Source: an uncultured Halobacteriales archaeon
GTDB taxonomy: Archaea; Halobacteriota; Halobacteria; Halobacteriales; Hikarchaeaceae
Assembly (NCBI GenBank): GCA_964554565.1
Contig: CAZKPC010000003.1
Span: 1,009-65,008, forward strand
Length of the DNA stretch: 64,000 nt
Reading direction: 5' to 3'
The position numbers were made by a program, and so were the translations under genes. The notes under the pieces are model-generated. The model had not been told where the DNA came from. It saw only the letters and a program-made list of their open reading frames with translations, and did no database searches. Positions 43,469 through 64,000 of the stretch are shown here, piece after piece. Every line of letters starts with the position of its first letter. Position 1 is the first letter of the stretch.

Positions 43469-43654
43469 ATTGGTAACGTGGGACTGGGAGGTTGGCCTTT
43501 AAATATCTGTGGACAGGTCGGCGGATGCTGCGTTCGGGACGGTAGCTCTCTTGGCAGGAGTGAGATCCGACCACGGCCCGGCAGGTGACCGAGATGCAGG
43601 CCAAGATTGGCGGAGACCCAAGCTATAATGGTTGAGCGAGTGACTTCGGCCTGC

Positions 43655-46151: not shown

Positions 46152-47797
46152 CCCTGTTCGAGCGCGCTGACGAACTGGTCGACCGCGGCGAGCCGGCCGC
46201 CATGCTGACGGTCGTCGGCAAGGACGGGAGCGCGCCGCGGGAAGTCGGGACCCGGATGCTCGTGACGGCCCAGGACGAGTTCGGCACGATCGGCGGCGGC
46301 AGCGTGGAAGGCCTCGCCATCGAGGAGGCCCGCGACGTCCTCGAAGGGCAGGCCGAGCCGGGCGTGCGCAACTACGAGCTCCGACCGGGTGGGAACACCG
46401 GGATGGTCTGCGGGGGGTCGATGGACGTGTTCATCGACCGTCTGCGCGGGAAGCGACACGTGTATGTTGCGGGCGGCGGCCACATCGCCGCCGAGCTGGC
46501 CCCGCTGGCCGCCCGGATGGGATACGCGGTCACGTTGATCGACGACCGGGCGGAGTACGCCGCCGAGGCCCGCTTCCCCGAGGCCACCCGAGTCATCCAC
46601 GGCGACTACGGCGAGGCCCTGGCTGAGCTCCCGATCACGTCCGAGTCCGCCGTCGTCGTCGCGACCCGGAGCGGCACCTTCGATACCGCCGCCGTCGGCG
46701 CCGCGCTCGAAGGTGGCGCCGGCTACGTCGGGCTGGTCGCCAGCGACACCAAGGCCGACCGGGTACTGGACAACCTCGCCGAGGACGGCTTCGGCCGGGA
46801 CCGCCTGGTCGACGTCCGAGCGCCGGTCGGCCTGGACCTCGGCGGGGGCGGGCCCGAGGACGTGGCCCTCTCCGTCCTCGCCGAACTCCACGCTGACCGG
46901 CACGACGCGTCCGGGAGCCGGCTGACGCGGCTCGACCTCGACGAGCTCGTCGTGGTCCGGGGCGGCGGCGATCTCGCCAGCGGGGTCGTGTACCGGCTCC
47001 ACCAGGCGGGGTTCCCGGTCGCGGTCCTCGAGGTCGAGCAGCCGACGGCGGTCCGACGGGCGGTGGCGTTCGCCGAGGCGGTGTACGAGGACGAAGTGAC
47101 GGTCGAGGGCGTCGGGGCCCGACGTGCGGAGGACGTCGATGCGGCCGTGGAGATGCTCGAGGCCGGCGAGGTCCCGGTGCTCGTGGACCCGGAGGCCGCG
47201 GCAGTCGATGCCTTGGAGCCCGGCGTGCTGGTCGACGCGGTGATGGCCAAGGGTAAACGGGATACCGGCACCCGCCGTGAGCAGGCGGACGTGGTCATCG
47301 GGTTGGGGCCGGGATTCGAGGCCGTCGCGGACGAGCCGGGATCGGTGGGCGCCGGGGGTGATACCACGGCGGCCGAGGCCGCCGATGGCGGGCCGGTTCC
47401 GGTCGACGCCGTCGTTGAAACCGATCGCGGCCACGAACTCGGCCGGGTGTTCTACGAGGGCACGGCCAGCCCCTATGACGGGACGCCGGGCGAGCGAGCG
47501 GGCCACACGCTGGACCGCGTCCTGTACGCCGAATCCGCGGGCGAGTGGTCGCCGACGGTGGAGATCGGCGAGCTGGTCGAGACGGGCGACGTGGTCGGCC
47601 ACGTCGGCGACGATCCCGTCGCGGCCGAGATCGACGGGCTGGTCCGGGGACTCGTCCGCGAAGGGCTGCAGGTCGAGGCCGGCACGAAGCTCGGTGACAT
47701 CGACCCCCGTGGCGACGCCGTGGATCCGACGAAGGTCTCCGACAAGGCGCTCTCGCTGGGCGGCGGGGTCCTTGAGGCGGTGCTGCGCCTCCGGTAA
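46148..47797 (+). CDS. yqeB: XdhC-YqeB fusion (Mo-hydroxylase maturation / selenium-cofactor protein)
   Basis: N-half GSAPRE.G, GTIGGG, CGG, APVGLDLG; C-half VRGGGDLASG, RRAVAF, ETDRGH.LG, GDIDPR, SDKA..LGGGVLEA. Confidence 0.9.
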   Translation: MTLFERADELVDRGEPAAMLTVVGKDGSAPREVGTRMLVTAQDEFGTIGGGSVEGLAIEEARDVLEGQAEPGVRNYELRPGGNTGMVCGGSMDVFIDRLRGKRHVYVAGGGHIAAELAPLAARMGYAVTLIDDRAEYAAEARFPEATRVIHGDYGEALAELPITSESAVVVATRSGTFDTAAVGAALEGGAGYVGLVASDTKADRVLDNLAEDGFGRDRLVDVRAPVGLDLGGGGPEDVALSVLAELHADRHDASGSRLTRLDLDELVVVRGGGDLASGVVYRLHQAGFPVAVLEVEQPTAVRRAVAFAEAVYEDEVTVEGVGARRAEDVDAAVEMLEAGEVPVLVDPEAAAVDALEPGVLVDAVMAKGKRDTGTRREQADVVIGLGPGFEAVADEPGSVGAGGDTTAAEAADGGPVPVDAVVETDRGHELGRVFYEGTASPYDGTPGERAGHTLDRVLYAESAGEWSPTVEIGELVETGDVVGHVGDDPVAAEIDGLVRGLVREGLQVEAGTKLGDIDPRGDAVDPTKVSDKALSLGGGVLEAVLRLR

Positions 47798-47825
47798 CGA
47801 AGGGCTCGACGCGCCGGCCGGCCCA

Positions 47826-48869
47826 TCAATCCGGGCGCGGCGCCGTGCCCAGGGAAACTTGGTCGACCGCCGGCTCGGCCAGCCGAGCGCCGGCCCCCTC
47901 GGTCACGCGGCCGACCGCTCGATAGAAGACGTCCGCCTCATCCAGCGCCGCTTCGAGGGCCGCCGTTCGCTCATCCTCAACCGCCACGAGCAGCCCGCCG
48001 CTCGTTTCAGCACTCTCTCCGGCGACCAGTCCATAGCCGAACAGGTCTGAGAGCGACGGCGTGCCCTCGATGACCGGGAGCTCCGTGAGTTCGATGCCGA
48101 CGCCGCTGCGGGCGGCGATCGTGCTTGCCTCGCCGAGCAGGCCGAACCCGGTGACGTCGGTGGCGGCCGTGGCGAGCTCCCGGACGGCCAAGGCTGCTGC
48201 CCGGTTCGGGTGGACCATCCACCGGTACGCCTCCTGACCGACCGCCCCGATATCGGGATCGGTCGCGTCGGCGACGGTTTCGGCGAACTCGCCATCGCTG
48301 ACGCGGAGCGCTCCCATGGCGGGCTGCGTGCCCAACGGCTTGGTCAGGTAGAGGTGATCCCCCGGACCGGCACCGGTGGTCGTCAGCAGCCGGTCCCGGG
48401 GAGCCGTGGCGGTGATCGCCCCGCCCGCCAGCGGCCACGGGTTAAGGATCGTGTGCCCCCCGGCGATGACGCCGTCCATCCCTCTGAGGGCCGTCAGCAT
48501 CCCCGTGAGGATCTCGGCGGCCACCGTGGTCAGATCCCGGGGGAGGCCCAAGACCGCCAGACAGGCCAAGTCGTCCACGGCGCCCGTCGCGAACGCGTCG
48601 CTGGCGGCGTTGACGGCGGCCACGCGGCCGAAGTCGGCCGGGTCATCGACCACGGGGGTAAACACGTCGACGGTCGACACCAGGGCCCGCGAATCGCCGA
48701 GCGGTTGGGCGGCCGCGTCCTCCCCGACGCCGAACAACAACCCGGGCTGCTCCCCATCGACCCCAGCCTCGGCGAGCAGCGACTCGAGATCGCCCCGACC
48801 GACCTTGCACGAACAGCCGTGGAGTTCGGCGTGGTCGGTGAGCGCCGGCTCCGGCCCGTCGTCCGCCAT
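47826..48869 (-). CDS. selD: Selenophosphate synthetase (Cys form)
   Basis: HGCSCK, EDAA, TVD.FTP.VDDP..FG, A.NA.SD, GGHT, LTKPLG, TDVTGFGLLG, ETSGGLL. Confidence 0.95.
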   Translation of the reverse strand: MADDGPEPALTDHAELHGCSCKVGRGDLESLLAEAGVDGEQPGLLFGVGEDAAAQPLGDSRALVSTVDVFTPVVDDPADFGRVAAVNAASDAFATGAVDDLACLAVLGLPRDLTTVAAEILTGMLTALRGMDGVIAGGHTILNPWPLAGGAITATAPRDRLLTTTGAGPGDHLYLTKPLGTQPAMGALRVSDGEFAETVADATDPDIGAVGQEAYRWMVHPNRAAALAVRELATAATDVTGFGLLGEASTIAARSGVGIELTELPVIEGTPSLSDLFGYGLVAGESAETSGGLLVAVEDERTAALEAALDEADVFYRAVGRVTEGAGARLAEPAVDQVSLGTAPRPD

Positions 48870-48870
48870 G

Positions 48871-49116
48871 CTAGGCGTCCGAAAGCGTCGCCTGCTCGGT
48901 TACCGTGATGTGCAGCTCGAAGGCGCCGTCCCCGTGATTGGGACCGTCAGTGACCTCGTAGCCGTGGCGGTCACAGGTCCGCCGGAGGTTCCGTTCGGCC
49001 GGCGGGTAATCGCCCCGAACCAGCAGCTCGTCCCCGGGGCTCAACTCCGCCAGCCGATCCCGGACGACGAGCGCCGGCCGCGGACAGACCTCCCCCGTGA
49101 CGTCCACGTGCTCCAT
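48871..49116 (-). CDS. tusA: TusA/SirA sulfur(selenium) carrier
   Basis: DVTGEVCPRP (CPxP) and L..GD.L.V..D; ends 1 nt before the selD start. Confidence 0.9.
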   Translation of the reverse strand: MEHVDVTGEVCPRPALVVRDRLAELSPGDELLVRGDYPPAERNLRRTCDRHGYEVTDGPNHGDGAFELHITVTEQATLSDA

Positions 49117-49199: not shown

Positions 49200-49970
49200 A
49201 TGGAGCTCGCCGACCAGCTCGAGGTGGGGGATCGGGCGCTGGTGGCGTTCGTCGGGGCCGGCGGCAAGAAGACGGCGATGGACCAACTCGTCGAGGAGGG
49301 GACCGACCGCGGACTGGCCGTCGGCTATACCACGACGACCCACGTCCCGCCGCCCGACCTCCCGCTCGCGTTGTCCGACCCAGAAACCCTCGAACGAGGG
49401 CTCGAGGAGCACGAGCCGCCGGTGGCATTCGCCCGGGAGGAGGTCGAGCAGCCGGAACGCGCCGACCGCAAGCTCCGTGGGTTCGAGCCATCGGTCGTCG
49501 ATTGGACCTATCGCACGCGGCGATTCGACTGGCTGCTGGTGAAAGCAGACGGGGCCCGACGGCGGGGGTTCAAAGCGCCGGGGCCCGACGAACCGGCGCT
49601 GCCGCTGGCCGCGACCCACGTGGTGCCGGTCGTCAGCGTACAGGTCGTCGGAAAGCCGCTGGCGCCGGAACACGTCCATCGCGTGGACCAGGTCGCGGCC
49701 ATCACGGGACTCGAGCCGGGCGATCCGATCGACGCCGCCGCCGTTGGCACTGTCCTCGGGAGCCCCGAGGGCGGCCTGAAGGGCGTCCCGGAGACGGCGA
49801 CGGCCACCTATCTGGTGAACCAGGCCGACACGCCGGCGCTTGCCGGCACCGCCCGGACAGTGCTCGAGACCGCCTTCGAGGTGGCCGGGCGCCCAGTCCG
49901 GGGCGCCGTGAGTTCCTTCGAGGCCGATCGGCTGGACGTTTTCGAGCCCGGAGGTCGCCGGGGAGCCTGA
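49200..49970 (+). CDS. yqeC: Selenium cofactor biosynthesis protein YqeC
   Basis: VGAGGKK, TTTTH, KADGARRR.FKAP..DEP, NQAD. Confidence 0.9.
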   Translation: MELADQLEVGDRALVAFVGAGGKKTAMDQLVEEGTDRGLAVGYTTTTHVPPPDLPLALSDPETLERGLEEHEPPVAFAREEVEQPERADRKLRGFEPSVVDWTYRTRRFDWLLVKADGARRRGFKAPGPDEPALPLAATHVVPVVSVQVVGKPLAPEHVHRVDQVAAITGLEPGDPIDAAAVGTVLGSPEGGLKGVPETATATYLVNQADTPALAGTARTVLETAFEVAGRPVRGAVSSFEADRLDVFEPGGRRGA

Positions 49971-49973: not shown

Positions 49974-51644
49974 TCAGCCGGCCACGACGTCCACGAACTC
50001 GGCCGCCGCGACGTCGACGAGGCCGTTGTTCGTCAGGCGGTACTCGGGGATGACCTCGAGGGACAGGAAGGACAGCTCCATGATGCCGCCGTCGTGGTCC
50101 AATCCCAGGTCACGGGCGGCCGTTTCGACGGCTTCGAAGCCATCACGGACGTCATGCAGCGGTCGATCCGACATCAACCCGGCTACGGGAAGCGGCAGGT
50201 CGGTGACCTGGCCCCCTTCGGGGTCGTAGGCCGCGATGCCGCCGCCGATCTCGCGCAGGTGGTTCGCCACCGCGGCCATCGAGTGGTGATCGACGCCGGC
50301 GACGACGAGATTGTGGGCGTCATGGGCGACCGTGCTCGCGATCGCGCCCCGGTCGAGCCCGAAGTTGTGCACGAACCCGCGGCCGATGCCCCCCTCGCCG
50401 CCGTGGCGCTCGATCACCGCCAGGTGCAGGACGTCGCTCCCGGGATCGGCACCCAGCCGGCCGTCCTCGACCGGCACCTCGGCCGTCATCTTGGCGGTTT
50501 GCAAGCCGCCCACGGCATCCACCACGCGAACCTCGACCGTGTCAGCGGCCGACCCCGGTGCCGACAGCGCGAAGTCAGCCGGGTCCACCGGGTCGAAGGC
50601 CACAGTGTCCGTCGCGATTTCGCTGGCGGGGGGCTCGCCGCTCCCGGCCGTCGGGTCCACCTCGCCGTCGATCAGGACGTGGTCGACCGTCCACGAGTCC
50701 AGATCGGAGAGCAACACGAGATCCGCGGGCGCCCCCGGCGCCAGGCGCCCGAACGGCAGTCCGTACGCCTCGGCGGTGTTCAGCGTGGCCAGCTGGACGG
50801 CCTCGACCGGATCCACGCCGAGGTCGATGGCCTTCCTGACCGCGAAGTCGATCCCGCCGTGCTCGATCAGGTCCACGACGTCCCGGTCGTCGGTACAGAG
50901 CGAGAGCCGTCGGCTGTCGACGTCCTCGACGAGATCCACGAGGTCAGCCAGGTTCCGGCTGGCGGTGCCCTCCCGGAGGTACACCCGGAGGCCGGCATCG
51001 ACTTTCTCCCGCGCTTCCTCGAGCGCGATGCTCTCGTGATCGGAGTCGAGGTACCGGGCGACCGTCTGCAGGTCCGACCCGGTCACGCGGGGGAGGTGTC
51101 CATCCACCGGGAGCGCCCGCTCCCGTGCGGCCTCGATCTTCGCGTGGACCTCGGGATCGCCGGAGAGGACACCCGGGATGTCCATGACCTCGCCGAGGGC
51201 CACCACGCCCGGTTCCTCCAGGAGCGTCGCGACCGCTTCGGGGCCGATCGCGGCCCCGGCGTCCTGCATGTCGGTCGCCGGCACGCTGGAGGGAACCGTG
51301 AATCGGGCCTTCAACGGTGTCTGGGTCGCATCGGCCAGGTGTGCCCGGACGCCCGACGCGCCGAGGACGTTGGCGATCTCGTGTGGATCGGTCACGATGC
51401 TCGTCACGCCCCGCGGCACCACGGCCGCCCCGTAGCGGGGCAGGGTCACCATGGCCGACTCGACGTGCATGTGGGCGTCGATCAGTCCCGGCGCGATGTA
51501 CGCCGCCTCCAGCGTCCGATCGGCCGGCCGCTCCTCCAGGGCCACGATCTCGCCGTCGTCGATCGCGACCGCCCCCTCGTCGAGCTGGCCGGTGTGGACA
51601 TTGACGACCGTCCCGGTTACGACCGTGTCCACGCGTTCGCTCAT
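49974..51644 (-). CDS. ade: Adenine deaminase
   Basis: PGLIDAHMHVES, DPHEIANV, SDHE, LREG, CTDD, STVAHDAHN, LPVAGLMS. Confidence 0.95.
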   Translation of the reverse strand: MSERVDTVVTGTVVNVHTGQLDEGAVAIDDGEIVALEERPADRTLEAAYIAPGLIDAHMHVESAMVTLPRYGAAVVPRGVTSIVTDPHEIANVLGASGVRAHLADATQTPLKARFTVPSSVPATDMQDAGAAIGPEAVATLLEEPGVVALGEVMDIPGVLSGDPEVHAKIEAARERALPVDGHLPRVTGSDLQTVARYLDSDHESIALEEAREKVDAGLRVYLREGTASRNLADLVDLVEDVDSRRLSLCTDDRDVVDLIEHGGIDFAVRKAIDLGVDPVEAVQLATLNTAEAYGLPFGRLAPGAPADLVLLSDLDSWTVDHVLIDGEVDPTAGSGEPPASEIATDTVAFDPVDPADFALSAPGSAADTVEVRVVDAVGGLQTAKMTAEVPVEDGRLGADPGSDVLHLAVIERHGGEGGIGRGFVHNFGLDRGAIASTVAHDAHNLVVAGVDHHSMAAVANHLREIGGGIAAYDPEGGQVTDLPLPVAGLMSDRPLHDVRDGFEAVETAARDLGLDHDGGIMELSFLSLEVIPEYRLTNNGLVDVAAAEFVDVVAG

Positions 51645-51684
51645 GTCAGGAGGGTGGGCCGCGACGGACATCAATCCCGCCGGT

Positions 51685-53013
51685 TCAGGGCTTCACGGCC
51701 TGGGCGGCCGCGCGGTGCTCGGCCAGATCGAGATCGACCTCGCGCGCCCGCCGGCGGATCTCGTCCGCGTCGGCCACGGTCAGTTCGCCGTCCTCGTAGA
51801 GGACCTCGCCGTCGACCATCGTGAACTCGACGTCGTCGCCGTGGGCCCCGTACACGAGGTGCGAGCGGACGTCGTGCAGGGGCGTGGCCCGGGTGAGATC
51901 GGTGCGGAGGCCGATGATGTCGGCTTTCCAGCCCTCGCGGATCGCACCGACGTCATCGAAGCCGGCCGCGGCCGCGCCGTTTCGCGTCGCCATGTCGAAG
52001 ATGACTGACGCCGGCGTGGCGGTCGGGTCGAGCCGCTCGACCTTCTGCAGGAGGCTCGCCTGCCGCATCTCCGTGAAGGGATCCAGCGTGTTGTTGCAGG
52101 GCGGGCCGTCGTTCCCCAGTGCGACGTTTATCCCCCGATCGAGGTAATCGACGATCGGCGCCACGCCGCTGGCGAGTTTCATGTTCGATGACGGGCAGTG
52201 AGTGACGTGGGTGCCGGTCTCCGCGAGCAGGTCCCGCTCCGCCTCGTTCGTCCAGACACAGTGGGCCAGCACGACGTCCTCGCCCGTGAGGCCGACCTCG
52301 TGGAGCCAGTGGATGTTGCGGACGCCGGTCTCCTTCTCCACGGTCGCGATCTCGTCCTGGTTCTCGCTGGCGTGCGTGTGGATCCGGACGGCGTCATAGC
52401 GGTCAGTCAGCTCCCGGGCGCCACGGAGACACGCCTCCGAACAGGAGACCGCGAACCGCGGCGTCACGGCGTACCGGATCCGGTCGTCGTGGCTGCGGTG
52501 ATAGCGTTCGATCAGGCGCTCGGATTCGGCCAGCGCGGCGTCCGCGTCCTCCAGCAGCCCCGGCGGCGAGTCCTTGTCCATGAGCACCTTCCCGAGAACG
52601 CCACGGATCCCGAGCTCGCCGGCGGCTTCGAACGCCTGGTCGGCGTGGGCGACCGAGAGGTGGTCGATCACGGTCGTCGTGCCGCTCTCGAGACACTCGA
52701 GGTAGCCCAGCTTGGCCGCGATCTCCATCTCCTCGGCCGTGAGCGAGGCCTCCATGGGCAGCACGTGGTCGAAGAGCCAATCCAGGAGGGCGGTATCGTC
52801 CGCGATTCCCCGGCCGAGGCTCTGGACCGAATGGATGTGGGCACCGACCAATCCCGGTGCGAGGAGATCGAAGGACCGGCGCTCGTGATCCGGATACCGC
52901 TCGATCAGCTCTGCTCGGGAGCCGACGGCTTCGATCCGCGGGCCCTCGACGAGGACCGCGCCGTCCCGGAGCACGCTGTCGCCGTCCTGGATGACGGTCC
53001 CGGTCAGTAGCAT
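51685..53013 (-). CDS. Amidohydrolase of the TrzA/AtzA/SsnA/guanine-deaminase group
   Basis: HIH, YAVTPRFAVSC, HTHASE, AHC, HCP.SNMKL, GND; substrate uncertain. Confidence 0.85.
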   Translation of the reverse strand: MLLTGTVIQDGDSVLRDGAVLVEGPRIEAVGSRAELIERYPDHERRSFDLLAPGLVGAHIHSVQSLGRGIADDTALLDWLFDHVLPMEASLTAEEMEIAAKLGYLECLESGTTTVIDHLSVAHADQAFEAAGELGIRGVLGKVLMDKDSPPGLLEDADAALAESERLIERYHRSHDDRIRYAVTPRFAVSCSEACLRGARELTDRYDAVRIHTHASENQDEIATVEKETGVRNIHWLHEVGLTGEDVVLAHCVWTNEAERDLLAETGTHVTHCPSSNMKLASGVAPIVDYLDRGINVALGNDGPPCNNTLDPFTEMRQASLLQKVERLDPTATPASVIFDMATRNGAAAAGFDDVGAIREGWKADIIGLRTDLTRATPLHDVRSHLVYGAHGDDVEFTMVDGEVLYEDGELTVADADEIRRRAREVDLDLAEHRAAAQAVKP

Positions 53014-53082
53014 CCCGCAACCCGTTGAGCCCGTCGGCCGGAAATACTTACCCATCTGGCCGCCGCGGCGTGTTCGGGACCG

Positions 53083-54075
53083 TCAGTCGGTTTCGCGGCT
53101 GTAGGCCTGGAGCAGCGCCCCCGGAACGCCGAGCTGTTTGCGGCCCGCCTTCCGGACCGTAATCGCGAGCACCACGATCGTGGCGATATACGGATAGGTC
53201 GCCATGATCGTCGGGTGAAAGAGGAAGCCGCTCACGGCATTGACCGCGTCGGCGGCCGGGAACCCGGCCCCGACCTGGAGGTTGAGGGCCTGCGAACGGA
53301 GCTTGAGGGCGTCGAGGAGGCCGAAGAGGTAGGCGCCCACGAGCGCCCGCTCGGGCCGCCACTGGGCGAAGATCACTAGGGCCACCGCGATCCAGCCGCG
53401 GCCGGCCACCATCCCGGGCACCCAGAGCTGGGCGAACGCGAGCGAGAGGTGGGCGCCCGCCGCGCCCGCGAACGCACCCCCGAGCAGGACGCAGAGATAG
53501 CGCATTCGAAACACGTTCACGCCCATCGTATCGGCGGTTTCGGGGTCGTCACCGACAGCAGTGATCTCGAGCCCGAGGTTCGTCCGGAAGAGGAAATACC
53601 AGGTGATGGGGACCAACGCCAGCGCGATGTAGTCGAGCGGCGTCGATCGGAACAGGGCCTCACCGATCACCGGGATCCCGACGAGGAATCGACCGATGAT
53701 CGGGAACGTGATCTGGCCGAAGCCGTCGATGGAATTTTCGACCCACTGCTGCCCGAAGAAGGTCGTCAACCCGATCCCGAGCAGCGTGAGCATGATCCCG
53801 CTGATCACCTGGTCGGATTTCAGCGTGATCGTCAGGAACGCGTGAATGGCGGCCATCGCGGTCCCGAGGATGATCGCGACCAGGAGCCCCAGCCACGGGT
53901 TGCCGGTGATGACCGTGACAACGAACCCGCTCAGGGCGCCGACGAGCATCATCCCCTCGACGCCCAGATTGAGAATGCCCGCCCGCTCGGCGATGATCTC
54001 GCCGAGCGAGGCGAGGATCAGGACCGTCGAAGCGCGGACGGTTGCGTCGAGCAGCCCGGCGAGGAACGAGACCAT
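53083..54075 (-). CDS. Nucleoside ABC transporter permease 2
   Basis: ERAGILNLGVEGMM, GRGWIA.A.V.F..WRP, PY. Confidence 0.92.
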   Translation of the reverse strand: MVSFLAGLLDATVRASTVLILASLGEIIAERAGILNLGVEGMMLVGALSGFVVTVITGNPWLGLLVAIILGTAMAAIHAFLTITLKSDQVISGIMLTLLGIGLTTFFGQQWVENSIDGFGQITFPIIGRFLVGIPVIGEALFRSTPLDYIALALVPITWYFLFRTNLGLEITAVGDDPETADTMGVNVFRMRYLCVLLGGAFAGAAGAHLSLAFAQLWVPGMVAGRGWIAVALVIFAQWRPERALVGAYLFGLLDALKLRSQALNLQVGAGFPAADAVNAVSGFLFHPTIMATYPYIATIVVLAITVRKAGRKQLGVPGALLQAYSRETD

Positions 54076-55170
54076 TCAGGCCACCTCCCCGCCCGCCGTC
54101 GGCTCGGCTTCGCGTTCGATCTCGATCGATACCTCGTACCGTTTCACGAACTCCGCCGTGATCAGGAACAGGATGATCAGGGCTTGGATGACGTCGACGA
54201 GCGCGGACGGGACGCCGAACTGGGTCCGGATGCGGAAGCCCCCGACGAACAGGACCGCGAAGAACAGGGCCGCCAGCACGACCTGCGGCGCCCCGTTCCG
54301 TCCGAGCAGCGCGATCGGGATCGCGGTGAACCCATACCCGGGGGAGAAGTCCGGGCGGAGCCGGTCCTGCACGCCGGCGATCTCCGCGACGCCAGCCATG
54401 CCCGCGAGCGCCCCGCCGGCCACGAGCACGAACACGTACACGTAGAAGGAGTTCATGCCGGCCTGGCGGGCCGCGTCGGGGTTCGAACCGACGAACGTGA
54501 TCTCGAAGCCGAGTCTGGTCGCCCGAAGGAGCGCATAGACGGCCGCTGCAGCCACCAGCGCGAACAGGATGCCGATGTGGACGTCGGTGCCCGGGATCAG
54601 CGGGAACCGGGCCGCTTCCGGGAGCAGAGCCGTCACCGGGAAGTTCCCCTCGCCCCCTTGCATCGGGCCCCGGACCATGTAGCCGTTCAGCTCGATGGCC
54701 ACGAAGGTCAGCAGCAGCGTCGTGATGATCTCGTTGACGTCCCACTTCGCGCGGAGCCAGCCCGGGATCCCCGCCCAGACGGCGCCGGCCCCGAGGGAGG
54801 CCAACAGCATCAGCGGCACCAGGAGGACCGCCGGCAGGCCGAGGTTCAGCCCGACCCAGGTGCCGGCGATCGCCCCGACGTAGAGCTGGCCCTCGGCCCC
54901 GATGTTCCAGAGGCCACCCCGGAGCGGGAGATACACCGCCAACCCCGTTAGGATGAGCGGCACCCCACGAACGAAGGTGTTCGTGAGGCCGAACGTGTTG
55001 GTCACGGTGTTGACGAACATGGCCTCGTAGACGGCGACAGGATCGAACTGCAGCGCGATCAGCGCGACGGCCCCGACGAGGAGTGCCGCGACGATGGTGA
55101 AGACCGGGGCGCCGTAGACGATCCAAGCCGGCAACTCCTCACGGCCGGAGATCGCGACGTCGACGTTCAC
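54076..55170 (-). CDS. Nucleoside ABC transporter permease 1
   Basis: GLWNIGAEGQ, NEIITT, GYGF..I..ALLGR. Confidence 0.92.
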   Translation of the reverse strand: MNVDVAISGREELPAWIVYGAPVFTIVAALLVGAVALIALQFDPVAVYEAMFVNTVTNTFGLTNTFVRGVPLILTGLAVYLPLRGGLWNIGAEGQLYVGAIAGTWVGLNLGLPAVLLVPLMLLASLGAGAVWAGIPGWLRAKWDVNEIITTLLLTFVAIELNGYMVRGPMQGGEGNFPVTALLPEAARFPLIPGTDVHIGILFALVAAAAVYALLRATRLGFEITFVGSNPDAARQAGMNSFYVYVFVLVAGGALAGMAGVAEIAGVQDRLRPDFSPGYGFTAIPIALLGRNGAPQVVLAALFFAVLFVGGFRIRTQFGVPSALVDVIQALIILFLITAEFVKRYEVSIEIEREAEPTAGGEVA

Positions 55171-56822
55171 GGGGCGTCACCTCCGGCCGGCTCCGCGACG
55201 GCCGCCCCGCCGGATGACTCCGATTCCAGGCCCCGGCCGCCGGTCATCTCGAGGCCGACCTCCTCGGGGTTCGTCTCCTCGGGCGTCGATTCGTGGACGA
55301 ACTCGCCCTCGTAGATCACGGAGATACGATCGCTGAGTTCGAAGAGCTCGTCCAGGTCCTCCGAGATGAGGAGGACGCCGGTCCCCTCGCCGCGCTGTTC
55401 GAGAATGGTCTCGCGGACGAACTCGATCGCGCCGACGTCGACGCCCCGGGTCGGCTGATTGGCGATGAGCACATCCGGGTCCCGGGAGAGTTCCCGGGCG
55501 AGGATCAGCTTCTGGAGATTGCCTCCGGAGAGATCCCCGGCCCGCATTTCGTTGACGTCACTGACCCCCCGGATATCGAATGACTCCACGAGCTCCTCCG
55601 CGTAGGCACGCATCTCGTCGTAGTCCAGCATTCGGTTGCCGAACTCCGAGCGGCGGTAGTCCTTCATCACCGCGTTGTGCATCACCGAGAGCTCCTCGGC
55701 ACACCCGAACCGGTACCGGTCCTCCGGCACGAACGAGACCCCGTTCTCGATGAATTCGCGGGCCGATGCGCCGGTGAGGTCTGTGTCACCGACCGTGATC
55801 GTTCCCGCTGTCGGTTGACGGATCCCCACCAATGACTCCGCCAGTTCACGCTGACCGTTCCCACTGACACCCGCGATCCCCACGATCTCGCCCTCTTGGA
55901 TCTCCAGATCGACGCCCGCCAGCGCCTCGATCCCGCGGTCGTCGGTCGCGTGCAGACCCTCGGCGGCCATGACCGGGGCCCCGGCCTGCACATCGCCCTT
56001 CTCGAGTTCGAACAGCACTTCCCGGCCGACCATCAGCCGCGCGAGGTCCTCGCGGGTGACCGTAGCGGTATCGACGGTCTCGACCTTCTCGCCGTTCCGC
56101 AAGACCGTGACCCGATCGGTGAGCGCGGTGACCTCCTTCAGTTTGTGCGTAATGAAGATGATCGTGAGCCCGTCCTGGGCCAGCTGTTCGAGCGTCTCGA
56201 ACAGCCGTTCAGCCTCGTTGGGTGTCAGAACGGCCGTCGGTTCGTCGAGGATGAGGAGATCGACGTCCCGATAGAGGGCCTTCAGGATCTCGACCCGCTG
56301 TTGCTGTCCGACGTCCAGCTCCCAGATCCGGGCATCGACATCGACCTGGAACCCGTACTGGTCGGCGAGGTCGACGATACGCTCCCGGGGTTGGTCGAGG
56401 CCGAGCGTGAACAGCCGGCCCATGGCCTTGGCCGCCCGGTTCGTCGCGAGCCAATCCGGCCAGCGTCCGTCAGCGCCGTCTCGGAACGAGGACGCCGGCT
56501 CCCGGCGGCCCAGGACGACGTTTTCGGCCACTGTGAGCCGGGGGATGAGCATGAAATGCTGATGCACCATTCCGATGCCGTTCCGGATGGCGTCCTGGGG
56601 GGAGTCGAGGTCGAGCCGCTCGCCATCGAGGTAGACCTCGCCGCCGTCGGGCCGGTAGAGCCCGTAAAGGACGTTCATCAGCGTGCTCTTGCCAGCCCCG
56701 TTCTCCCCGAGGAGGCCGTGGATCTCGCCGCGGCGGACCGAGAAATCGACGTGATCGTTGGCCACGACGCCGGGGAACTCCTTGACGATATCCTCCATCC
56801 GGAGGAACGGATCATCGCTCAT
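55167..56822 (-). CDS. Nucleoside ABC transporter ATP-binding protein (tandem NBD)
   Basis: GENGAGKST, QQRVEILK, LILDEPT, LSGGNLQK, QPTRGVD. Confidence 0.95.
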   Translation of the reverse strand: MSDDPFLRMEDIVKEFPGVVANDHVDFSVRRGEIHGLLGENGAGKSTLMNVLYGLYRPDGGEVYLDGERLDLDSPQDAIRNGIGMVHQHFMLIPRLTVAENVVLGRREPASSFRDGADGRWPDWLATNRAAKAMGRLFTLGLDQPRERIVDLADQYGFQVDVDARIWELDVGQQQRVEILKALYRDVDLLILDEPTAVLTPNEAERLFETLEQLAQDGLTIIFITHKLKEVTALTDRVTVLRNGEKVETVDTATVTREDLARLMVGREVLFELEKGDVQAGAPVMAAEGLHATDDRGIEALAGVDLEIQEGEIVGIAGVSGNGQRELAESLVGIRQPTAGTITVGDTDLTGASAREFIENGVSFVPEDRYRFGCAEELSVMHNAVMKDYRRSEFGNRMLDYDEMRAYAEELVESFDIRGVSDVNEMRAGDLSGGNLQKLILARELSRDPDVLIANQPTRGVDVGAIEFVRETILEQRGEGTGVLLISEDLDELFELSDRISVIYEGEFVHESTPEETNPEEVGLEMTGGRGLESESSGGAAVAEPAGGDAP

Positions 56823-57112: not shown

Positions 57113-58231
57113 ATGGTTGACAAACGATTCACTCGACGCGACGCACTCAAGGCGATGAGCACGGTCCCGGCCGTCGGTTTGGCCGGGTGCCTCGGTGGCG
57201 GTGGTTCAGGCGATGGCGACGGTGACAGTAGCGGTGATTCGACGCCGATGGACACCCCCGAGGACGAGACCATCAACGCCGCCTGGGTATACATTTCCGA
57301 GGTCGGCGACCTCGGCTGGTCCTGGGCCCACGACCAGGGACGCAAGGCCGTCGCTAACCGATACGACTGGCTGGAAACGTCCTTCTCCGAAGCCGTCCCC
57401 CCGTCCGACGGCAAGCAGGTCATGGAACAGTACACCCAGCAGGACTTCGACATCATCTTCGGGACGACCTTCGAGTACATGGATCCCATGTTGGAACTCG
57501 CGAAGAACAACCCGGACACCCTCTACGAGCACTGTTCCGGCTTCAAAACCCATGACAACATGGGCCGGTACTTCGGTCGGATGTACCAGGCCCGATACCT
57601 CGCGGGGGTTGCGGCGGCCATGATGCCGGATGTGAGCTCTATGGGCTACGTCGCGGCGTTCCCGATCCCGGAGGTCGTCAGGGGCATCAACGCCTTCACC
57701 GCGGGCGCCCGGTCGGTCAACAGCGACATCACGACGAAGGTCCGATGGACGAACACCTGGTTCGACCCGCCGACTGAGAAAGAAGCCGCCCAGAGCCTGA
57801 TCGACGAGGGCGTCGACGTGATGGCTCAGCACCAGGACTCGCCGGCAGCCGTCCGTGCCGCCAAGGAAGCCGGGATCTGGGCGACCGGCTATGACGCGCC
57901 GATGGACGAATTCGGCGGCGAGCAGTACGTCACCTCCCCCATCTGGCACTGGGAGGTCTTCTACGAGCCGACGCTCATCTCCGTCCAGAAAGGCAACTGG
58001 GAGTCCGACGCCTACTGGGAAGGGCTCGATGCCGGCATCGTGGACCTCTCCGATTGGGGCCCGCAGGTCCCGAGCGAGGCCAAATCGATGGTCAGTGACA
58101 CCGAGGAACAGATCATCACCGGCCAACTGGATCCCTGGGCCGGCACCAAGTTCGAGGGCGAGAGCGATTCGTTCCTCTTCGGCCAGATGTCGAGCTACGT
58201 CGAAGGCGTGGAAGGGTCGGTCCCGAACTAA
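57113..58231 (+). CDS. BMP-family purine nucleoside-binding lipoprotein (Tat-exported)
   Basis: TRRDALK Tat motif, LAGC lipobox, DLGWS.AH, IPEV.R.INAF, WFDP, QHQDS. Confidence 0.93.
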   Translation: MVDKRFTRRDALKAMSTVPAVGLAGCLGGGGSGDGDGDSSGDSTPMDTPEDETINAAWVYISEVGDLGWSWAHDQGRKAVANRYDWLETSFSEAVPPSDGKQVMEQYTQQDFDIIFGTTFEYMDPMLELAKNNPDTLYEHCSGFKTHDNMGRYFGRMYQARYLAGVAAAMMPDVSSMGYVAAFPIPEVVRGINAFTAGARSVNSDITTKVRWTNTWFDPPTEKEAAQSLIDEGVDVMAQHQDSPAAVRAAKEAGIWATGYDAPMDEFGGEQYVTSPIWHWEVFYEPTLISVQKGNWESDAYWEGLDAGIVDLSDWGPQVPSEAKSMVSDTEEQIITGQLDPWAGTKFEGESDSFLFGQMSSYVEGVEGSVPN

Positions 58232-58343
58232 GCCCGGTCGCAACTCCGGGGCATTCTTCTCCGTTTTCGGTCCCCCTGCAGAGCGTCGCTGAAGCGCTGG
58301 CGGAAGGTATATGCGAGCCAGGGTAGAATCTCAGCCAGATTCC

Positions 58344-59579
58344 ATGGAGCTCGAGCGCCATCGCCCGCGTATCGACGAGTGGGTCGACGAACACCGCGAG
58401 GACTGCATCGCCTTCCTGCAGGACCTGATCGCCATTCCCAGCGCGACGACAGTCGGCGAGGACGAAGCCGAGATCGCCGACCGGGTCGTCGAGGAACTTG
58501 AGGCGCTCGACTACGACGAGGTCCGGGTCGACGGGATCGGGAACGTTCATGGCGTGATCGAGGGGGCCCGCGACGACGAGGGCGCCGTCATGCTCAACTC
58601 CCACATCGACACGGTGGGGTTCGGCGACCGGGAGCAATGGGACCACGACCCCTACGGCGGCGAGATCGAGGACGGGCAGCTCTACGGGCTCGGGAGCGCG
58701 GACATGCTCTGTGCGATGGCGTCGATGGTTTACGGCGGGGCGGCGCTGATCGACCTCGATATCACCCCTGAACACGACGTTTACGTGACCGGCGAAGTGT
58801 TCGAGGAGGTCCACGAGGGCCACGCGATGCGGTACGCCGTCGAGGAAGCGGACCTCGACCTGTCGGCCGTCGTCATCGGGGAGGCGACCGAGATGGACGT
58901 CAAGCGGGGTCATCGGGGTCGGTGTGAGCTGAAGATCGAGATCGAGGGCGCGTCCTGTCATGCCAGCGCGCCGGAGCGGGGCATCAACCCGCTGTATCAC
59001 GCCGCCGCGATGCTCGAGCGGATCGAGGAGCTGAACGAGGAAACGGCGGACGACGACTTCCTGGGATCGGGGACGATCGCGGGGACGAACCTCGAGGTCG
59101 ACACGCCGTCCAACAACGCGGTCCCGGCCCACGCCACGCTCTATGTCGATCGACGGTTGACGGTTGGCGAGGACGAGGCGACCGTCCATGCCGAACTCGA
59201 GGACGCGATCAGCGCCGCCGAAGCGGTCTACGGGGATGACGTAGCGGCGGAGGTCGAGACCCTTTCCTTCGATCGGCCGTCCTACACCGGCTACCAGCAG
59301 GAGACTCCGAAGTACTACCCGAGTTGGGTCCTCGATGAGGACCACCCCCTCGTCCAGCAGACCTCGGAAGTGGCCTCGACGATGCTGGACTCGGACCATG
59401 AGATTACCAAGTGGACCTTCTCCACCAGCGGGAACTACACGATGGGCGTCGCGGGGATCCCGACCATCGGCTTCGGTCCGTCCCGCGAGGAGTGGGCGCA
59501 CATGGCCAACGAACGCGTCGCGGTCGAGGACGTCGTCGATGCGATCGGCGTTTACGCCGGGCTGGCCGCCGAACTATAG
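58344..59579 (+). CDS. ygeY: YgeY-family M20 metallo-hydrolase (N-carbamoyl/ureido hydrolase)
   Basis: HIDTVG.G...W..DPY, EE, RG.RGR, SCH.SAPERG.N, D.FLG.GT, DRRLT.GE, DRPS.TG, KWTFST.G, IGFGP. Confidence 0.88.
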   Translation: MELERHRPRIDEWVDEHREDCIAFLQDLIAIPSATTVGEDEAEIADRVVEELEALDYDEVRVDGIGNVHGVIEGARDDEGAVMLNSHIDTVGFGDREQWDHDPYGGEIEDGQLYGLGSADMLCAMASMVYGGAALIDLDITPEHDVYVTGEVFEEVHEGHAMRYAVEEADLDLSAVVIGEATEMDVKRGHRGRCELKIEIEGASCHASAPERGINPLYHAAAMLERIEELNEETADDDFLGSGTIAGTNLEVDTPSNNAVPAHATLYVDRRLTVGEDEATVHAELEDAISAAEAVYGDDVAAEVETLSFDRPSYTGYQQETPKYYPSWVLDEDHPLVQQTSEVASTMLDSDHEITKWTFSTSGNYTMGVAGIPTIGFGPSREEWAHMANERVAVEDVVDAIGVYAGLAAEL

Positions 59580-59603: not shown

Positions 59604-60656
59604 TCAGGAGTTTTCGACGACCCGCGTCCCCGCCTCGCCTTCGAGGGCCGCCTGAGCCTCGTCGAGCGACGTGATCAGCGCGACTCGGTCGCGCCGGGAT
59701 TCGCCCTCGACGAACCGACACGCCGCCTGCACCTTCGGCCCCATGCTGCCCGCCGGGAACTGGCCGGCGTCGAGCTTCGCTCGCAAGTCCGCCGCCGCGA
59801 TCTCCTCGATCATGGCCTCGTCCGGGCCCCCGAAGTCCCGGTAAACCCCGTCCACGTCGGTCAGGATGAGGAGGTAGTCCGCGTTCAGAGTGTGGGCGAT
59901 CTGCGCGGACAGGAGGTCCTTGTCGACCACGGCATCGAGGCCCTCGATCTCGCCGGCCCGCCTGATGACGGGCACGCCCCCGCCGCCGCCACAGATGACG
60001 AGGTCCCGCTGGTCGATCAGACGCTTGACCGGCACCTCCTCGACAATGCCGAGGGGCTCTGGGGACGGCACCACTCGACGATACGGGGTCTCCGGGTCGT
60101 CGCGGACCGCTTTGACGGTCGCGCCCTGAGAGCGGAGCTCCTCGGCCCGCTGTTCATCGAGATAGGGGCCCACCGGCTTCGTCGGGTCGTCGAAGGCCGG
60201 ATCCTCGGGATCGACCATGGTCTGGGTGAGGATGCAGGCGACCGGCACGTGCTTCCACCGGCGTTCCAGGTGCATCTGCATCTGCTGGGCGAGCATGTAG
60301 CCGATCTGGCCCTGGCTCATGGCCCCACAGACCTCGAGGGGCTGGGCCGGCGGCTCGCCTTGCTCCTGCTGGTTCAACAACGCGCCGACCTGGGGCCCGT
60401 TGCCGTGGGTCAAGACGACCTTGTAGCCGGCTTTCATCACGTCGACGATCTGTTGGGACGTCCGGCTGACCGCATCGAGCTGGGATTCGTACGTGCCGTC
60501 CGAATCCGCCGGGCTGATCGCGTTGCCGCCGAGGGCGATCATCGTCAGCGGCTTCTGTCGCGGGGTGCCCCAGAACGCCGGCGGCTCGACATCGAGGTCG
60601 AAAGCCGGCACCTCGTCCGGATGGAATTCGGGCGGTTCCTCCTCGGGGGCGTCCAT
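59604..60656 (-). CDS. arcC: Carbamate kinase
   Basis: ALGGNA, THGNGPQVG, PTKPVG, RRVVPSPEP, GGGG.PV, VDKD, GSMGPK. Confidence 0.96.
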   Translation of the reverse strand: MDAPEEEPPEFHPDEVPAFDLDVEPPAFWGTPRQKPLTMIALGGNAISPADSDGTYESQLDAVSRTSQQIVDVMKAGYKVVLTHGNGPQVGALLNQQEQGEPPAQPLEVCGAMSQGQIGYMLAQQMQMHLERRWKHVPVACILTQTMVDPEDPAFDDPTKPVGPYLDEQRAEELRSQGATVKAVRDDPETPYRRVVPSPEPLGIVEEVPVKRLIDQRDLVICGGGGGVPVIRRAGEIEGLDAVVDKDLLSAQIAHTLNADYLLILTDVDGVYRDFGGPDEAMIEEIAAADLRAKLDAGQFPAGSMGPKVQAACRFVEGESRRDRVALITSLDEAQAALEGEAGTRVVENS

Positions 60657-60663: not shown

Positions 60664-61680
60664 TTACCAGCCGCGCCCGCCCATCGTCAGCGCCATCAGC
60701 GCCTTCTGGGCGTGCATGCGGTTCTCCGCCTGGTCGTAGATCACGCTCTGCGGGCCGTCCATCACCGCGTCCGTGGCCTCGTACCCCCGCTTCGCCGGCA
60801 GGCAGTGCATGTAGTTCGCGTGGGGCTTCGCGTTCGCCAGCATCTCCTCGTCGCAGATCCAGTCCTGGTTGGCGTCGTGGATCTCCTTCTCGGCCTCCCG
60901 ACCGCGTTCGTGCACTTTGGTGGAAACCCAGTGTTTCGGGTAGACGACGTCCGCGCCATCGAAGGCCCGGGCCATGTCGTGCTCGATCGTGAAGTCGACG
61001 CCCGCCTCCTCGGCGTTCTCCTCGGCCTGCTCGACGATCCGGGGGTCCAGGTCGAGACCCTCGGGGTGGGCCAGCGTGACGTTCGCCCCCATCTTCGTGA
61101 ACCCCAGGATCGAGGAGTGGGGGACCGAGACCGGGCGCCGGATCTCCGGCGCGTAGGCGTAGGAGATGACGAAGTTCTGGTCCTCGATGCGGCCCTGTTG
61201 CTCGCGTACCGTCTGGAGGTCGGCCAGGGTCTGACACGGGTGGTAGGTGTCACACTGCATGTTGTAGACCGGGACGTCGCAGCCGGCCTGGTATTCCCGG
61301 ACGATCTCCGTCCCTCGTGGGTACTCGAAGTCGACGGCGGCGCCGAGGACCCGCACGGCGAACCCGTGGCCGTAGCGGGAGAGCACCTTGGCCGTCTCCC
61401 GGGCGCTCTCGCCGTGTTCGAGCTGGAGCTGGTCGGGCGCCATGATATGCGGGTAACCGCCCAGCTGGTTGATGCCCGCCTCGAACGAATTGCGGGTCCG
61501 CGTACTGGTGTTGTAGAAGAGCATGAAGAGCGACTGGCCCGTCAGCGCGTCGTAGTGGGCGAGCTCGCCGCGGGCGAACTCCGCCTTGAGCTGATCGGCC
61601 ACGTCGAGGACCGACGTGAGCTCCTCCTTCGTCCATTCCTGGACCGTCACCATGTCCTTGCCGCGAAGTGAGGTTTGCAT
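60664..61680 (-). CDS. ygeW: YgeW-like carbamoyltransferase
   Basis: STRTR, NMQCD.YHPCQ, SYAYAP...PVSVP, VYPKHW, MHCLP; lacks the OTC SMG loop; GGAGGT SD. Confidence 0.75.
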   Translation of the reverse strand: MQTSLRGKDMVTVQEWTKEELTSVLDVADQLKAEFARGELAHYDALTGQSLFMLFYNTSTRTRNSFEAGINQLGGYPHIMAPDQLQLEHGESARETAKVLSRYGHGFAVRVLGAAVDFEYPRGTEIVREYQAGCDVPVYNMQCDTYHPCQTLADLQTVREQQGRIEDQNFVISYAYAPEIRRPVSVPHSSILGFTKMGANVTLAHPEGLDLDPRIVEQAEENAEEAGVDFTIEHDMARAFDGADVVYPKHWVSTKVHERGREAEKEIHDANQDWICDEEMLANAKPHANYMHCLPAKRGYEATDAVMDGPQSVIYDQAENRMHAQKALMALTMGGRGW

Positions 61681-61840: not shown

Positions 61841-62860
61841 ATGAGCAGTGACACTGAGCGGGTCGGGCTGTATATGCAGGACAAGCACCCCATCCGCGAG
61901 AACATGGAGTACGTGAAATACGCCGAGTCGCAGGGGTTCGACGAGGTCTGGCAGGCGGAGTCCCGCCTGGCACGGGACGCGATCACGCCCTGTGCGGCCT
62001 ACGCCGCGGTGACCGACGAGATCAAAGTCGGGACCGGTGTGATCAACAACTGGACCCGGAACGCCGCGCTGATCGCCCAGACGATGTCCACGATGGAGGA
62101 GCTGGCCGGGCCGAACCGGATCCTCTGTGGCATCGGCGCCTGGTGGGAACCGATCGCCTCGAAGGTCGGGGTCAACCGCGAACGGCCGCTGCGCGCGATG
62201 CGGGAGACGGTGGAGGTCGTGAAGCAGCTGCTCGACATGGAGAACGTGACCTATGACGGCGACTTCGTCAACGTCGAGGACATCGAGCTGGACGTCGTCC
62301 ACGGGGATACCGGGCCCCGGACGGTCCCGGTCTACGTCGGCGGGACCGGGTTCACCATGCTCGAGCTCACCGGCGAGTTCGCCGACGGCGCCCTCCTGAA
62401 CTACCTCGTCAGCCCGGAGTACAACGAGAAGGCGCTGGAGGCCCTGGAGACGGGGGCCGAACGGGCCGGTCGCACCCTCGAGGACATTGACCGGCCTCAG
62501 CTCGTCGTCTGTTCGATGGATCACGACGCCGACAAGGCGCTCGACAACGCCCGGGAGCTCATCACGCAGTACCTCGGCCAGCAGCCCCACATCATGAAGG
62601 CCTCCGGCGTGAGTCAGGACCTCATCGACGACGTCGGCGAGGCGATCGGCGGGTGGCCGGCCGGCGAGGACGACATCCAGAAGGGAATGGACCTCATCCC
62701 CGACGAGGTCGTCCGCAAGCTCACGGCCTCCGGGACGCCCGAGCAATGCCGCGAGAAGGTCCGTGAATACTACGAAACCGGCTGCCAGTGCCCGATCCTC
62801 TACCCGCTCGGCGATGACGTCGAGCTCATGATCGACGAGTTCGCCGACGGCTACCTGTAA
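61841..62860 (+). CDS. Mer-like luciferase-family (LLM) oxidoreductase, probably F420-dependent
   Basis: [31 protein letters not shown]...GEFADG, GTPE. Confidence 0.85.
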
Positions 62861-62913: not shown

Positions 62914-63951
62914 ATGACTAGTCCGACCTGGGACAAGAGCCGCACTGCCAGCGGCGACATCTTCGCCGCCATCGGCGAGACGCCCCTGCTGGAGATCGAC
63001 ACCGATTCCGACGCTGACGTCTACGGGAAACTGGAGTTTCTGAACCCGAGCGGCTCCATCAAGGACCGCATCTACCGCGCGATGATCACCGCCGCCATCG
63101 AGCGCGGCGACCTCGAACCCGGAATGGAGATCCTGGAGTGCTCCACCGGCAATGCCGGCATCGCGTGCACGTTCGTCGGGAGCCAGCTCGGCTACGACGT
63201 GACGATCGTGATGCCCGAGGGCATGAGCGAGGAGCGCAAGAAGGTCATCCGCGCCTACGGCGGCGAGTTGATCGAAACGCCGGGCGGTGAAAGCGACGTC
63301 GACCTCTCGATGGAACGGGTCGAAGAGAAGATCGAGGAAGAGCCCGGGCAGTACTGGTTCCCGAACCAGTTCGCGAACCCCGACAACCCGCGGGCCCACG
63401 CGGAGACGACGGGCCCGGAGATCCTCGAACAGCTCGGCGGCGCACCTGACGCGTTCGTGGCGGGGCAAGGGACCGGCGGGACGCTCACTGGTGTCGGCCG
63501 GACGCTGCGGGAGGAGCGCTCGGACGTCCAGCTGTTCGCCCTCGAGCCCGCCGAGGCGCCGATCCTCTCGGCGCGCGAGTGGGGCAGCCACGAGATCGAG
63601 GGGATCGGCGACGGCTTCGTCCCCCAGAACCTCGACCCCGAGCTGATGGACGGCGTGGTCACGGTGACCTCGGAGGACGCCATCGACCGCTCCCGCTGGC
63701 TCGCCGACGAGGAGGGGGTCTTCTGTGGCATCTCCTCGGGCGCGAACATCGAGGGCGCCGTGAAGGTCGCCGAGGCCCAGGGACTGGACTCGATCGCGAC
63801 CATCATCTGCGATACCGGCATGCGCTACTTCTCCACGAAGCTGTTCGAGGACGAATACGAGATCGACGTCCCCGACCGCGATCACCCGCTCGACGACCGG
63901 TCGATCCGCGTCCTCGAGGAGTACCAGGACACCTGGACGATCCTCGACTAA
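62914..63951 (+). CDS. Cysteine-synthase-family (fold type II) PLP enzyme
   Basis: KLEFLNPSGSIKDR, STGNAG, NQF, GTGGT, IEGIG, GISSGA. Confidence 0.9.
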   Translation: MTSPTWDKSRTASGDIFAAIGETPLLEIDTDSDADVYGKLEFLNPSGSIKDRIYRAMITAAIERGDLEPGMEILECSTGNAGIACTFVGSQLGYDVTIVMPEGMSEERKKVIRAYGGELIETPGGESDVDLSMERVEEKIEEEPGQYWFPNQFANPDNPRAHAETTGPEILEQLGGAPDAFVAGQGTGGTLTGVGRTLREERSDVQLFALEPAEAPILSAREWGSHEIEGIGDGFVPQNLDPELMDGVVTVTSEDAIDRSRWLADEEGVFCGISSGANIEGAVKVAEAQGLDSIATIICDTGMRYFSTKLFEDEYEIDVPDRDHPLDDRSIRVLEEYQDTWTILD

Positions 63952-64000
63952 GGTCCCTCGGACGCCGGGGGCTCAATCCGCCGCGCCGCCGTACCGCTCG

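Follow-up and report, generated by a model that had tools for sequence, protein, structure and literature searches.

A Mer-like luciferase-family protein in a haloarchaeal purine island as a predicted F420H2-dependent replacement for YgfK

In the reductive urate pathway of E. coli, urate is reduced to 2,8-dioxopurine by XdhD; reduction of the ring by YgfK follows, and SsnA then opens the ring, which yields ureidomethyl-hydantoin. The pathway is summarised in passages of Percudani 2025 (PMC12990295). The activity of YgfK was detected by Li et al. (2025, PMC12507026) only when the enzyme was coupled to SsnA. Between E. coli and C. difficile a swap of enzymes has been described, with YgeW/YqeA in the one and UacY in the other. 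For SsnA clusters of Chloroflexota, Li et al. (2025, PMC12507026) predicted from gene neighbourhoods a yanthine reductase that belongs to the luciferase family and depends on F420. Hydride transferases that use F420 hand the hydride directly to their substrate, and Fht adds a hydride to an aromatic ring, as described in sections of a 2021 review (PMC8498797). In halophilic archaea, a single F420-dependent reaction has been reported and the role of the cofactor has been called enigmatic in parts of Pfeiffer and Dyall-Smith (2021, PMC8305020).

We analysed a stretch of 64,000 nucleotides, referred to as the window, on contig C3 of a haloarchaeal genome of 2.3 Mb that is 83% complete. The open reading frame at 61841-62860 on the plus strand runs from ATG to TAA and codes for a Mer-like luciferase-family (LLM) protein of 339 aa, whose nearest named homologues belong to the Halobacteriales. 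It lies in a purine island that starts with the Xdh molybdenum subunit at 40474 and continues past the end of the window on C3, where a ThrC-like gene and an ssnA-like gene are followed by guaA, at which the island ends, and pyrG (the last two named from reading the sequence). The genes are listed below, with profile scores given as bits/cut-off.

40474..42912, minus strand: Xdh molybdenum subunit; the residue aligned with Glu606 of E. coli XdhD is Glu (profiles, alignment)
42909..43439, minus strand: Xdh 2Fe-2S subunit (profile matches)
43607..45118, plus strand: NCS2 purine permease (PF00860)
45185..45903, plus strand: two DsrE/DsrF-like genes (PF02635)
46148..47797, plus strand: XdhC-YqeB Mo/Se cofactor maturation protein (TIGR03309 335/220; PF02625, PF13478)
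47826..48869, minus strand: SelD selenophosphate synthetase (TIGR00476 246/125)
48871..49113, minus strand: TusA-like sulfur carrier (PF01206)
49200..49970, plus strand: YqeC selenium cofactor protein (TIGR03172)
49974..51674, minus strand: adenine deaminase (TIGR01178 480/472)
51685..53055, minus strand: purine/nucleoside deaminase of the 5'-deoxyadenosine deaminase family (NF005557 681/522), the genome's best match to E. coli GuaD (33%)
53083..56822, minus strand: ABC transporter, ATPase and two permeases (PF00005, PF02653)
57113..58231, plus strand: BMP-family substrate-binding protein (PF02608)
58311..59579, plus strand: YgeY family hydrolase (NF009555 407/321)
59604..60656, minus strand: carbamate kinase ArcC in the YqeA slot (TIGR00746 371/358)
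60664..61680, minus strand: carbamoyltransferase in the YgeW slot, not a knotted YgeW (best model ornithine carbamoyltransferase, 263/306, below cut-off; knotted YgeW 173/453)
61841..62860, plus strand: Mer-like LLM protein, 339 aa, predicted F420H2-dependent 2,8-dioxopurine reductase (profiles, PF00296, structure model)
62914..63951, plus strand: CysK-like PLP enzyme, separated from the LLM gene upstream by 53 bp (TIGR01136 334/344, below cut-off)
63973..64000, minus strand: ThrC-like PLP enzyme, 3' end in the window (whole gene C3:64981-66219, mostly beyond the window)
C3:66309-67607, plus strand: SsnA-like amidohydrolase, adjoining the ThrC-like gene and wholly beyond the window (best model SsnA, 268/444)

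Judged by gene content, linkage, co-occurrence and predicted fold, we consider the LLM protein to be a predicted F420H2-dependent 2,8-dioxopurine (yanthine) reductase that replaces YgfK, with a probability of roughly 0.7. We favour this reading because of the evidence for the cofactor, the linkage to the pathway, the empty YgfK slot in carriers of the LLM gene and the prediction of Li et al. (2025). Like UacX of C. difficile and the E. coli enzyme YgfK (NADPH:2,8-dioxopurine oxidoreductase), the LLM protein would act upstream of SsnA and carry out the same putative reaction. Unlike them, it has an unrelated fold, carries no Fe-S or flavin modules and would pass the hydride of F420H2 directly to its substrate. 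In YgfK and UacX an FMN barrel is combined with Fe-S clusters, to which an FAD/NAD(P)H module may be added, whereas only PF00296 was found in the LLM protein, so that the relationship is one of analogy and not of membership.

The island shares Xdh, ssnA-like, carbamoyltransferase, carbamate kinase, YgeY, YqeB and YqeC genes with the known reductive urate cluster, and the best matches in the genome to E. coli XdhD, YgeW, YgeY, YqeA and SsnA all fall inside it. The pathway is likely a haloarchaeal version of the reductive urate pathway. In contrast to the known cluster, there is no orthologue of ygfK, ygfM, ygeX or hyuA, the carbamoyltransferase is unknotted, and ThrC-like and CysK-like PLP enzymes are found instead. 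The original prediction described the LLM gene as divergent from ygeW-arcC; the genes are indeed divergent across a gap of 160 bp, but the supposed ygeW does not code for a knotted YgeW. Its product is the host genome's best match to E. coli YgeW (35%). For the cleavage of ureido groups, YgeY and ArcC are present above cut-off together with this carbamoyltransferase. The molybdenum subunit of Xdh shares 35% identity with XdhD and 34% with XdhA. The Glu that it carries in the column of XdhD Glu606, a residue whose role in XdhD is a model in the source paper, is missing in XdhA and is replaced by Gly or Asp in 12 of the 12 other haloarchaeal copies aligned. The Xdh genes (40474-43439) code for molybdenum and 2Fe-2S subunits, with no FAD subunit in the island; XdhD of C. 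difficile has likewise been reported without one, and this suggests a ferredoxin-type partner for the island enzyme. The presence of selD, yqeB, yqeC, one tusA-like gene and a pair of dsrE-like genes at 45185-49970 of the window suggests that this haloarchaeon has a molybdenum hydroxylase that depends on selenium. Haloarchaeal SsnA shares 27% identity with the SsnA of E. coli and was placed as sister to bacterial SsnA with support of 100/99 in a tree of 27 rows that included a small set of deaminases. Given its distance in sequence from the E. coli enzyme, it could act on another substrate.

No YgfK/PreT-like gene was found in the island, covering the window and its continuation on C3 up to guaA. 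The claim that the island has no such reductase thus holds for the sequence adjoining the window as well, and also across the 83% complete genome, where the best match to TIGR03315 reached 44 bits of 835 and a search with the first 420 aa of E. coli YgfK returned nothing. The gene behind the TIGR03315 match is thioredoxin-reductase-like and not a YgfK. A match to PF01180 on contig C50 was identified as quinone-dependent dihydroorotate dehydrogenase and rejected as YgfK; a second, weak match on contig C5 (25 bits) spans about 50 positions. UacX-type enzymes were looked for in the fetched neighbourhoods and in the host genome. Among 66 genomes tested, YgfK was above cut-off in two (G306 and G319), both ssnA-positive and LLM-negative, and in none of the 21 haloarchaeal or 37 Chloroflexota LLM carriers. 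The LLM-negative genome G503 carries a YgfK homologue of 682 aa directly after ssnA (L064:10669-12717), in which the N-terminal and Fe-S parts are kept and the FAD/NAD(P)H module is missing. In G306, G319 and G503, cofE was not found. We count against our reading that four of seven LLM-negative ssnA genomes had no YgfK-type gene near ssnA or above cut-off. One bacterial cluster, in G408 (L068:7177-19964), holds the LLM gene, two different ssnA copies, cof genes and a PreT-PreA-like fusion of 832 aa. Since this genome carries both, the exclusion of flavo-Fe-S reductases by the LLM protein is not absolute.

The distribution of the LLM gene was assessed in 300 genomes of Halobacteria, each at least 90% complete, with matches taken at an E-value of 1e-100. 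Matches were obtained in 29 genomes. In 21 of them the identity is 75-83%, and in the other 8 it is 50-55%; the latter, which form a sister family, were removed before the counts. An orthologue of the island ssnA occurred in 21 of the 300 genomes, and these were the same 21 that carry the LLM gene (at least 75% identity), with both genes within 10 kb of each other in 20. The carriers represent 7 genera and 5 families, and 13 belong to one genus, so that the counts are not independent. Orthologues of about 81% identity are found in Haloarcula hispanica and its relatives. For the neighbourhoods, 33 homologue loci minus 4 short and 5 bacterial ones left 24 full haloarchaeal loci; 6 further loci were kept out of this count as possible duplicates. 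All 24 loci contain ssnA and ThrC-like genes, and 22 contain a hydantoinase-like gene, which is absent from L001 and L002. Carbamoyltransferase and ArcC occur in 5 loci and a PF07969 D-aminoacylase-like gene (e.g. L004:8066-9805) in the other 19, without overlap. This alternation mirrors that of YgeW/YqeA and UacY and, without recourse to the LLM protein, is evidence for the assignment to this pathway. The expectation that the LLM gene would be anti-correlated with ygfK among ygeW/ygeY clusters held in so far as no examined carrier had YgfK, but the tight partner of the gene is ssnA and not ygeW/ygeY, given the 5 of 24 loci with the carbamoyltransferase. Where the haloarchaeal cluster has no YgeY, an allantoate-amidohydrolase-like gene is usually present. 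In 9 haloarchaeal loci an rdfA-like gene (PF21811) follows ssnA (e.g. L001:15250-15873).

A second set comprised 251 genomes of Chloroflexota, the phylum of G301, which itself had been picked as a carrier. Here, the LLM gene (at least 57% identity) was present in 37 genomes, a match to SsnA in 44 and both in 36. Two of 39 initial matches (G430 and G481; 47-49% identity, no ssnA match) were removed, and G369 was taken out of the LLM-negative group, as it holds an LLM copy cut by a contig end. The Chloroflexota orthologues are 57-69% identical to the haloarchaeal query. In both sets the linkage of orthologues to the purine cluster, which the original prediction named as a check, is thus present. 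Of the 36 LLM-ssnA pairs, 19 lie within 20 kb, 16 are on different contigs and one is 120 kb apart. In the five top-scoring bacterial relatives (65-69%) the two genes are on different contigs, which we count against our reading. A quick tree of 38 rows (49 aligned, 14 left out for speed, 3 outgroups added) placed the haloarchaeal LLM proteins in one clade and the bacterial ones in its sister, and the root carries a long-branch warning; no donor can be named for a transfer of the gene. A further point against our reading is that uricase is no rarer in LLM carriers, with 2 of 21 having it compared with 25 of 279 other Halobacteria, so that no anti-correlation was seen.

The haloarchaeal proteins resemble the Chloroflexota protein of Li et al. 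in that both belong to PF00296 and are tied to ssnA and Xdh where YgfK/UacX is missing. They differ in their archaeal host, as the network in PMC12507026 is one of bacteria, and they form a clade of their own beside the bacterial proteins; they are presumably orthologous to the proteins of that paper. The idea of the enzyme swap is already in print (Li et al. 2025, PMC12507026), and the proposal of new F420 chemistry in purine catabolism is weaker to that extent; what is new here is its presence in haloarchaea, including Haloarcula. Neither 'archae' nor 'halo' is found in the main text of PMC12507026. Likewise, F420, luciferase and archaea do not occur in the main text of a preprint on the 2,8-dioxopurine pathway (10.1101/2025.04.24.650524), and the 2021 F420 review (PMC8498797) does not use the word 'purine' in its main text. 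Our literature search, which for the most part covered papers outside subscription, returned neither a test of the F420 enzyme nor a report from haloarchaea; supplementary material of Li et al. and Liu et al. may list such genomes.

Linkage indicates a pathway and not a substrate, and an F420-dependent enzyme might serve the same purine pathway at another point, on a different oxopurine or on a later unsaturated intermediate. The divergence of the haloarchaeal SsnA and the Glu at the Glu606 column, set against Gly or Asp in the other copies, would fit such a role, as would the deviating gene content of the host lineage. There, the host genome (G000) yielded no orthologue of the cluster hydantoinase, and neither did G555 or G557, the genomes of two of its closest LLM relatives (best matches 32-36%); a HyuA-type gene is absent from the island. 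We count this missing orthologue against our reading. More distant cyclic amidohydrolases of the host genome are located on contigs C14 and C9; those at C14:8136-15387 are three cyclic-amidohydrolase-like genes that form a cluster of their own together with genes for a carbamoylase and a permease. The host lineage also has an extra CysK-like gene, which is found in 4 of 28 haloarchaeal loci. No orthologue of YgeX was found in the island, where E. coli YgeX reached only 34-35 bits against the PLP enzymes, and we infer that the ThrC-like enzyme is a stand-in for this lyase. The CysK-like and ThrC-like genes occur where E. coli has ygeX, and the same pair accompanies a YgfK-type reductase in a cluster from Chloroflexota (L064:6113-8445; 51% and 45%). 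Against a different substrate or step, the reduction of the ring is the sole redox step without a gene, YgfK-type genes turn up where the LLM gene is absent, and the downstream genes fit the ureido-propionate route. We therefore regard another substrate or step within the pathway as unlikely.

A role in the reduction of pyrimidines or another N-heterocycle, similar to that of PreTA, with the gene travelling with the purine cluster, is more improbable still. It gains some weight from the sister family at 50-55% identity (L045-L052), which occurs in 8 of the 300 Halobacteria, has the motif W-Q-G-E-S-R and keeps most pocket residues. Within about 10 kb, a carbamoylase-like gene is found in 6 of its 8 loci, a hydantoinase-like gene also in 6, and ssnA in none. 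Because this family shares most of the pocket residues in the absence of ssnA, LLM proteins are likely able to serve other heterocycles, and the sister family is a candidate F420 reductase for another N-heterocycle. Hydantoinase and carbamoylase genes in most haloarchaeal clusters and the combination of LLM and PreTA-like genes in G408 also fit a pyrimidine substrate. However, the LLM family proper goes together with ssnA in 21 of 21 haloarchaeal carriers and in 36 of the 37 from Chloroflexota, and the host genome has both genes without an orthologue of the hydantoinase.

We predict the dependence of the LLM protein on F420 with very great confidence, because its best models and folds are of the F420 type, a Gly-Val pair and a carboxamide are kept, and cof and npdG genes are found in the genome and in the loci. 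PF00296, at 226 bits, is the sole Pfam domain found in the protein. All of the top 15 NCBIfam models are of the F420 type, the best being Mer with 186 bits. The predicted structure (pLDDT 91) is a luciferase-family TIM barrel nearest to F420 enzymes; the best fold matches are Mer structures (TM 0.82-0.86), and the top 17 listed are all F420 enzymes. The original prediction pointed to cofC, cofD and cofE, and genes for F420 synthesis are indeed present in the host genome along with npdG: cofC and cofG above cut-off, and cofH, cofD, cofE and npdG by tblastn. Contig C6 carries cofC, cofG and cofH together, and cofD, cofE and npdG are elsewhere in the genome. Within 10 kb, npdG was found in 7 and cofH in 5 of the 24 full-length haloarchaeal loci. 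An NAD kinase-inositol-monophosphatase-like fusion lies inside 8 of the 24 clusters over the same distance (e.g. L004:13082-14809). In 7 of these 8, npdG is present as well, and the fusion may be a source of NADP(H) for the recharging of F420. In the Chloroflexota loci L072-L074, the gene order is ssnA-npdG-cofE-cofD-cofC-LLM, followed by xdh in L073 and L074, and cofE was above cut-off in 36 of 37 Chloroflexota LLM carriers compared with 1 of 7 ssnA genomes without the LLM gene.

These data bear on whether the protein could instead be an FMN-dependent monooxygenase of the luciferase-like type, using oxygen to attack the purine ring. PF00296 does take in such monooxygenases, some database labels read 'LLM class flavin-dependent', and haloarchaea are mostly aerobic. 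We nevertheless consider this very improbable: models of FMN enzymes scored at most 39 bits against the 186 of Mer, FMN-enzyme folds among the matches listed reached a TM of 0.66-0.74, the orthologues adjoin cof and npdG genes, and no flavin reductase was seen among the annotated conserved haloarchaeal neighbours.

Mer itself (PDB 8QPL, 1Z69) is the closest described structure, with a TM of 0.85-0.86. Passages of Gehl et al. (2024, PMC11094777) assign catalysis to Glu6, contacts with the pterin to Asp96 and residue 178, and the cis-peptide beneath F420 to Gly61-Val62; residue 178 is written as Gln178 there, and the structure chain has Asn by residue count. Residues were mapped by counting by hand on a phmmer alignment. 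Gly61-Val62 corresponds to Gly66-Val67 and residue 178 to Asn187, whereas Glu6 is changed to Tyr11 and Asp96 to Trp102. At the level of sequence, all of these LLM residues are identical in 46 of 46 family rows. As Gly-Val and the carboxamide stay while the equivalents of Glu6 and Asp96 change, the F420 backstop appears kept and the substrate side rebuilt. The original prediction described a conserved Mer-type GxGV-N-xTR segment and QAESR in place of the DH motif of Mer, and the alignment agrees on both: G64-T-G66-V67-I-N-N-W-T72-R73 is present, and Q38-A-E40-S41-R42 stands opposite I-T-D35-H36-Y37 of Mer, with E40-S41 replacing D35-H36. The residues Q38, A39, E40, S41, R42, G66 and V67 are shared by 46 of 46 family members. 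QAESR was rejected as a unique signature, since Glu at this position is also found in the sister family (GESR) and in other LLM proteins, among them two paralogues in the host genome that read WLPET and WAGEL. That the protein is a true Mer or methylene-H4folate reductase sitting in the island by chance is hardly credible: its nearest structures and best HMM are Mer and several databases give it that name, but it misses both Mer cut-offs (186/276 and 177/349), is only 23-29% identical to Mer structures, has lost Glu6 and Asp96 throughout the family, and shows a patchy distribution bound to a catabolic cluster.

For the route of an F420H2-dependent 2,8-dioxopurine reductase, we infer the cofactor, the substrate, the direction and every step assignment. 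Purines would be imported by the ABC and NCS2 transporters and then deaminated, and the Se/Mo hydroxylase would convert urate to 2,8-dioxopurine. The LLM enzyme would transfer a hydride from F420H2 straight to C6 of 2,8-dioxopurine; the ureidomethyl-hydantoin product would require the hydride at this position, across C6=N1 or C5=C6 according to the tautomer. The SsnA-like hydrolase would open the dearomatised ring and thereby pull the reaction forward. Opening of the hydantoin would follow, a step for which no orthologue of the cluster hydantoinase was found in this genome. The carbamoyltransferase with ArcC, together with YgeY, would remove the ureido groups, and the ThrC-like enzyme would release pyruvate and ammonia. 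F420 would be recharged from NADPH by NpdG.

On balance, it seems probable that purine breakdown in haloarchaea, including Haloarcula, follows a reductive route that needs no oxygen and in which the ring is dearomatised by F420H2, with a third, unrelated catalyst of the YgfK step and the first case in Halobacteria; the host lineage is perhaps rewired further, having no cluster hydantoinase and an added CysK-like enzyme. Haloarcula is a genus with gene-deletion tools. As its members carry close orthologues, the 2025 prediction is open to in vivo testing, and a single-domain reductase without Fe-S clusters would be simpler to study than YgfK. If our reading is true, the reductive urate pathway would extend to halophilic archaea and the dearomatisation of the purine ring would join the reactions of F420 hydride transferases. 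It would also give F420 a defined catabolic job in haloarchaea, where its role is called enigmatic in the parts of PMC8305020 cited above.
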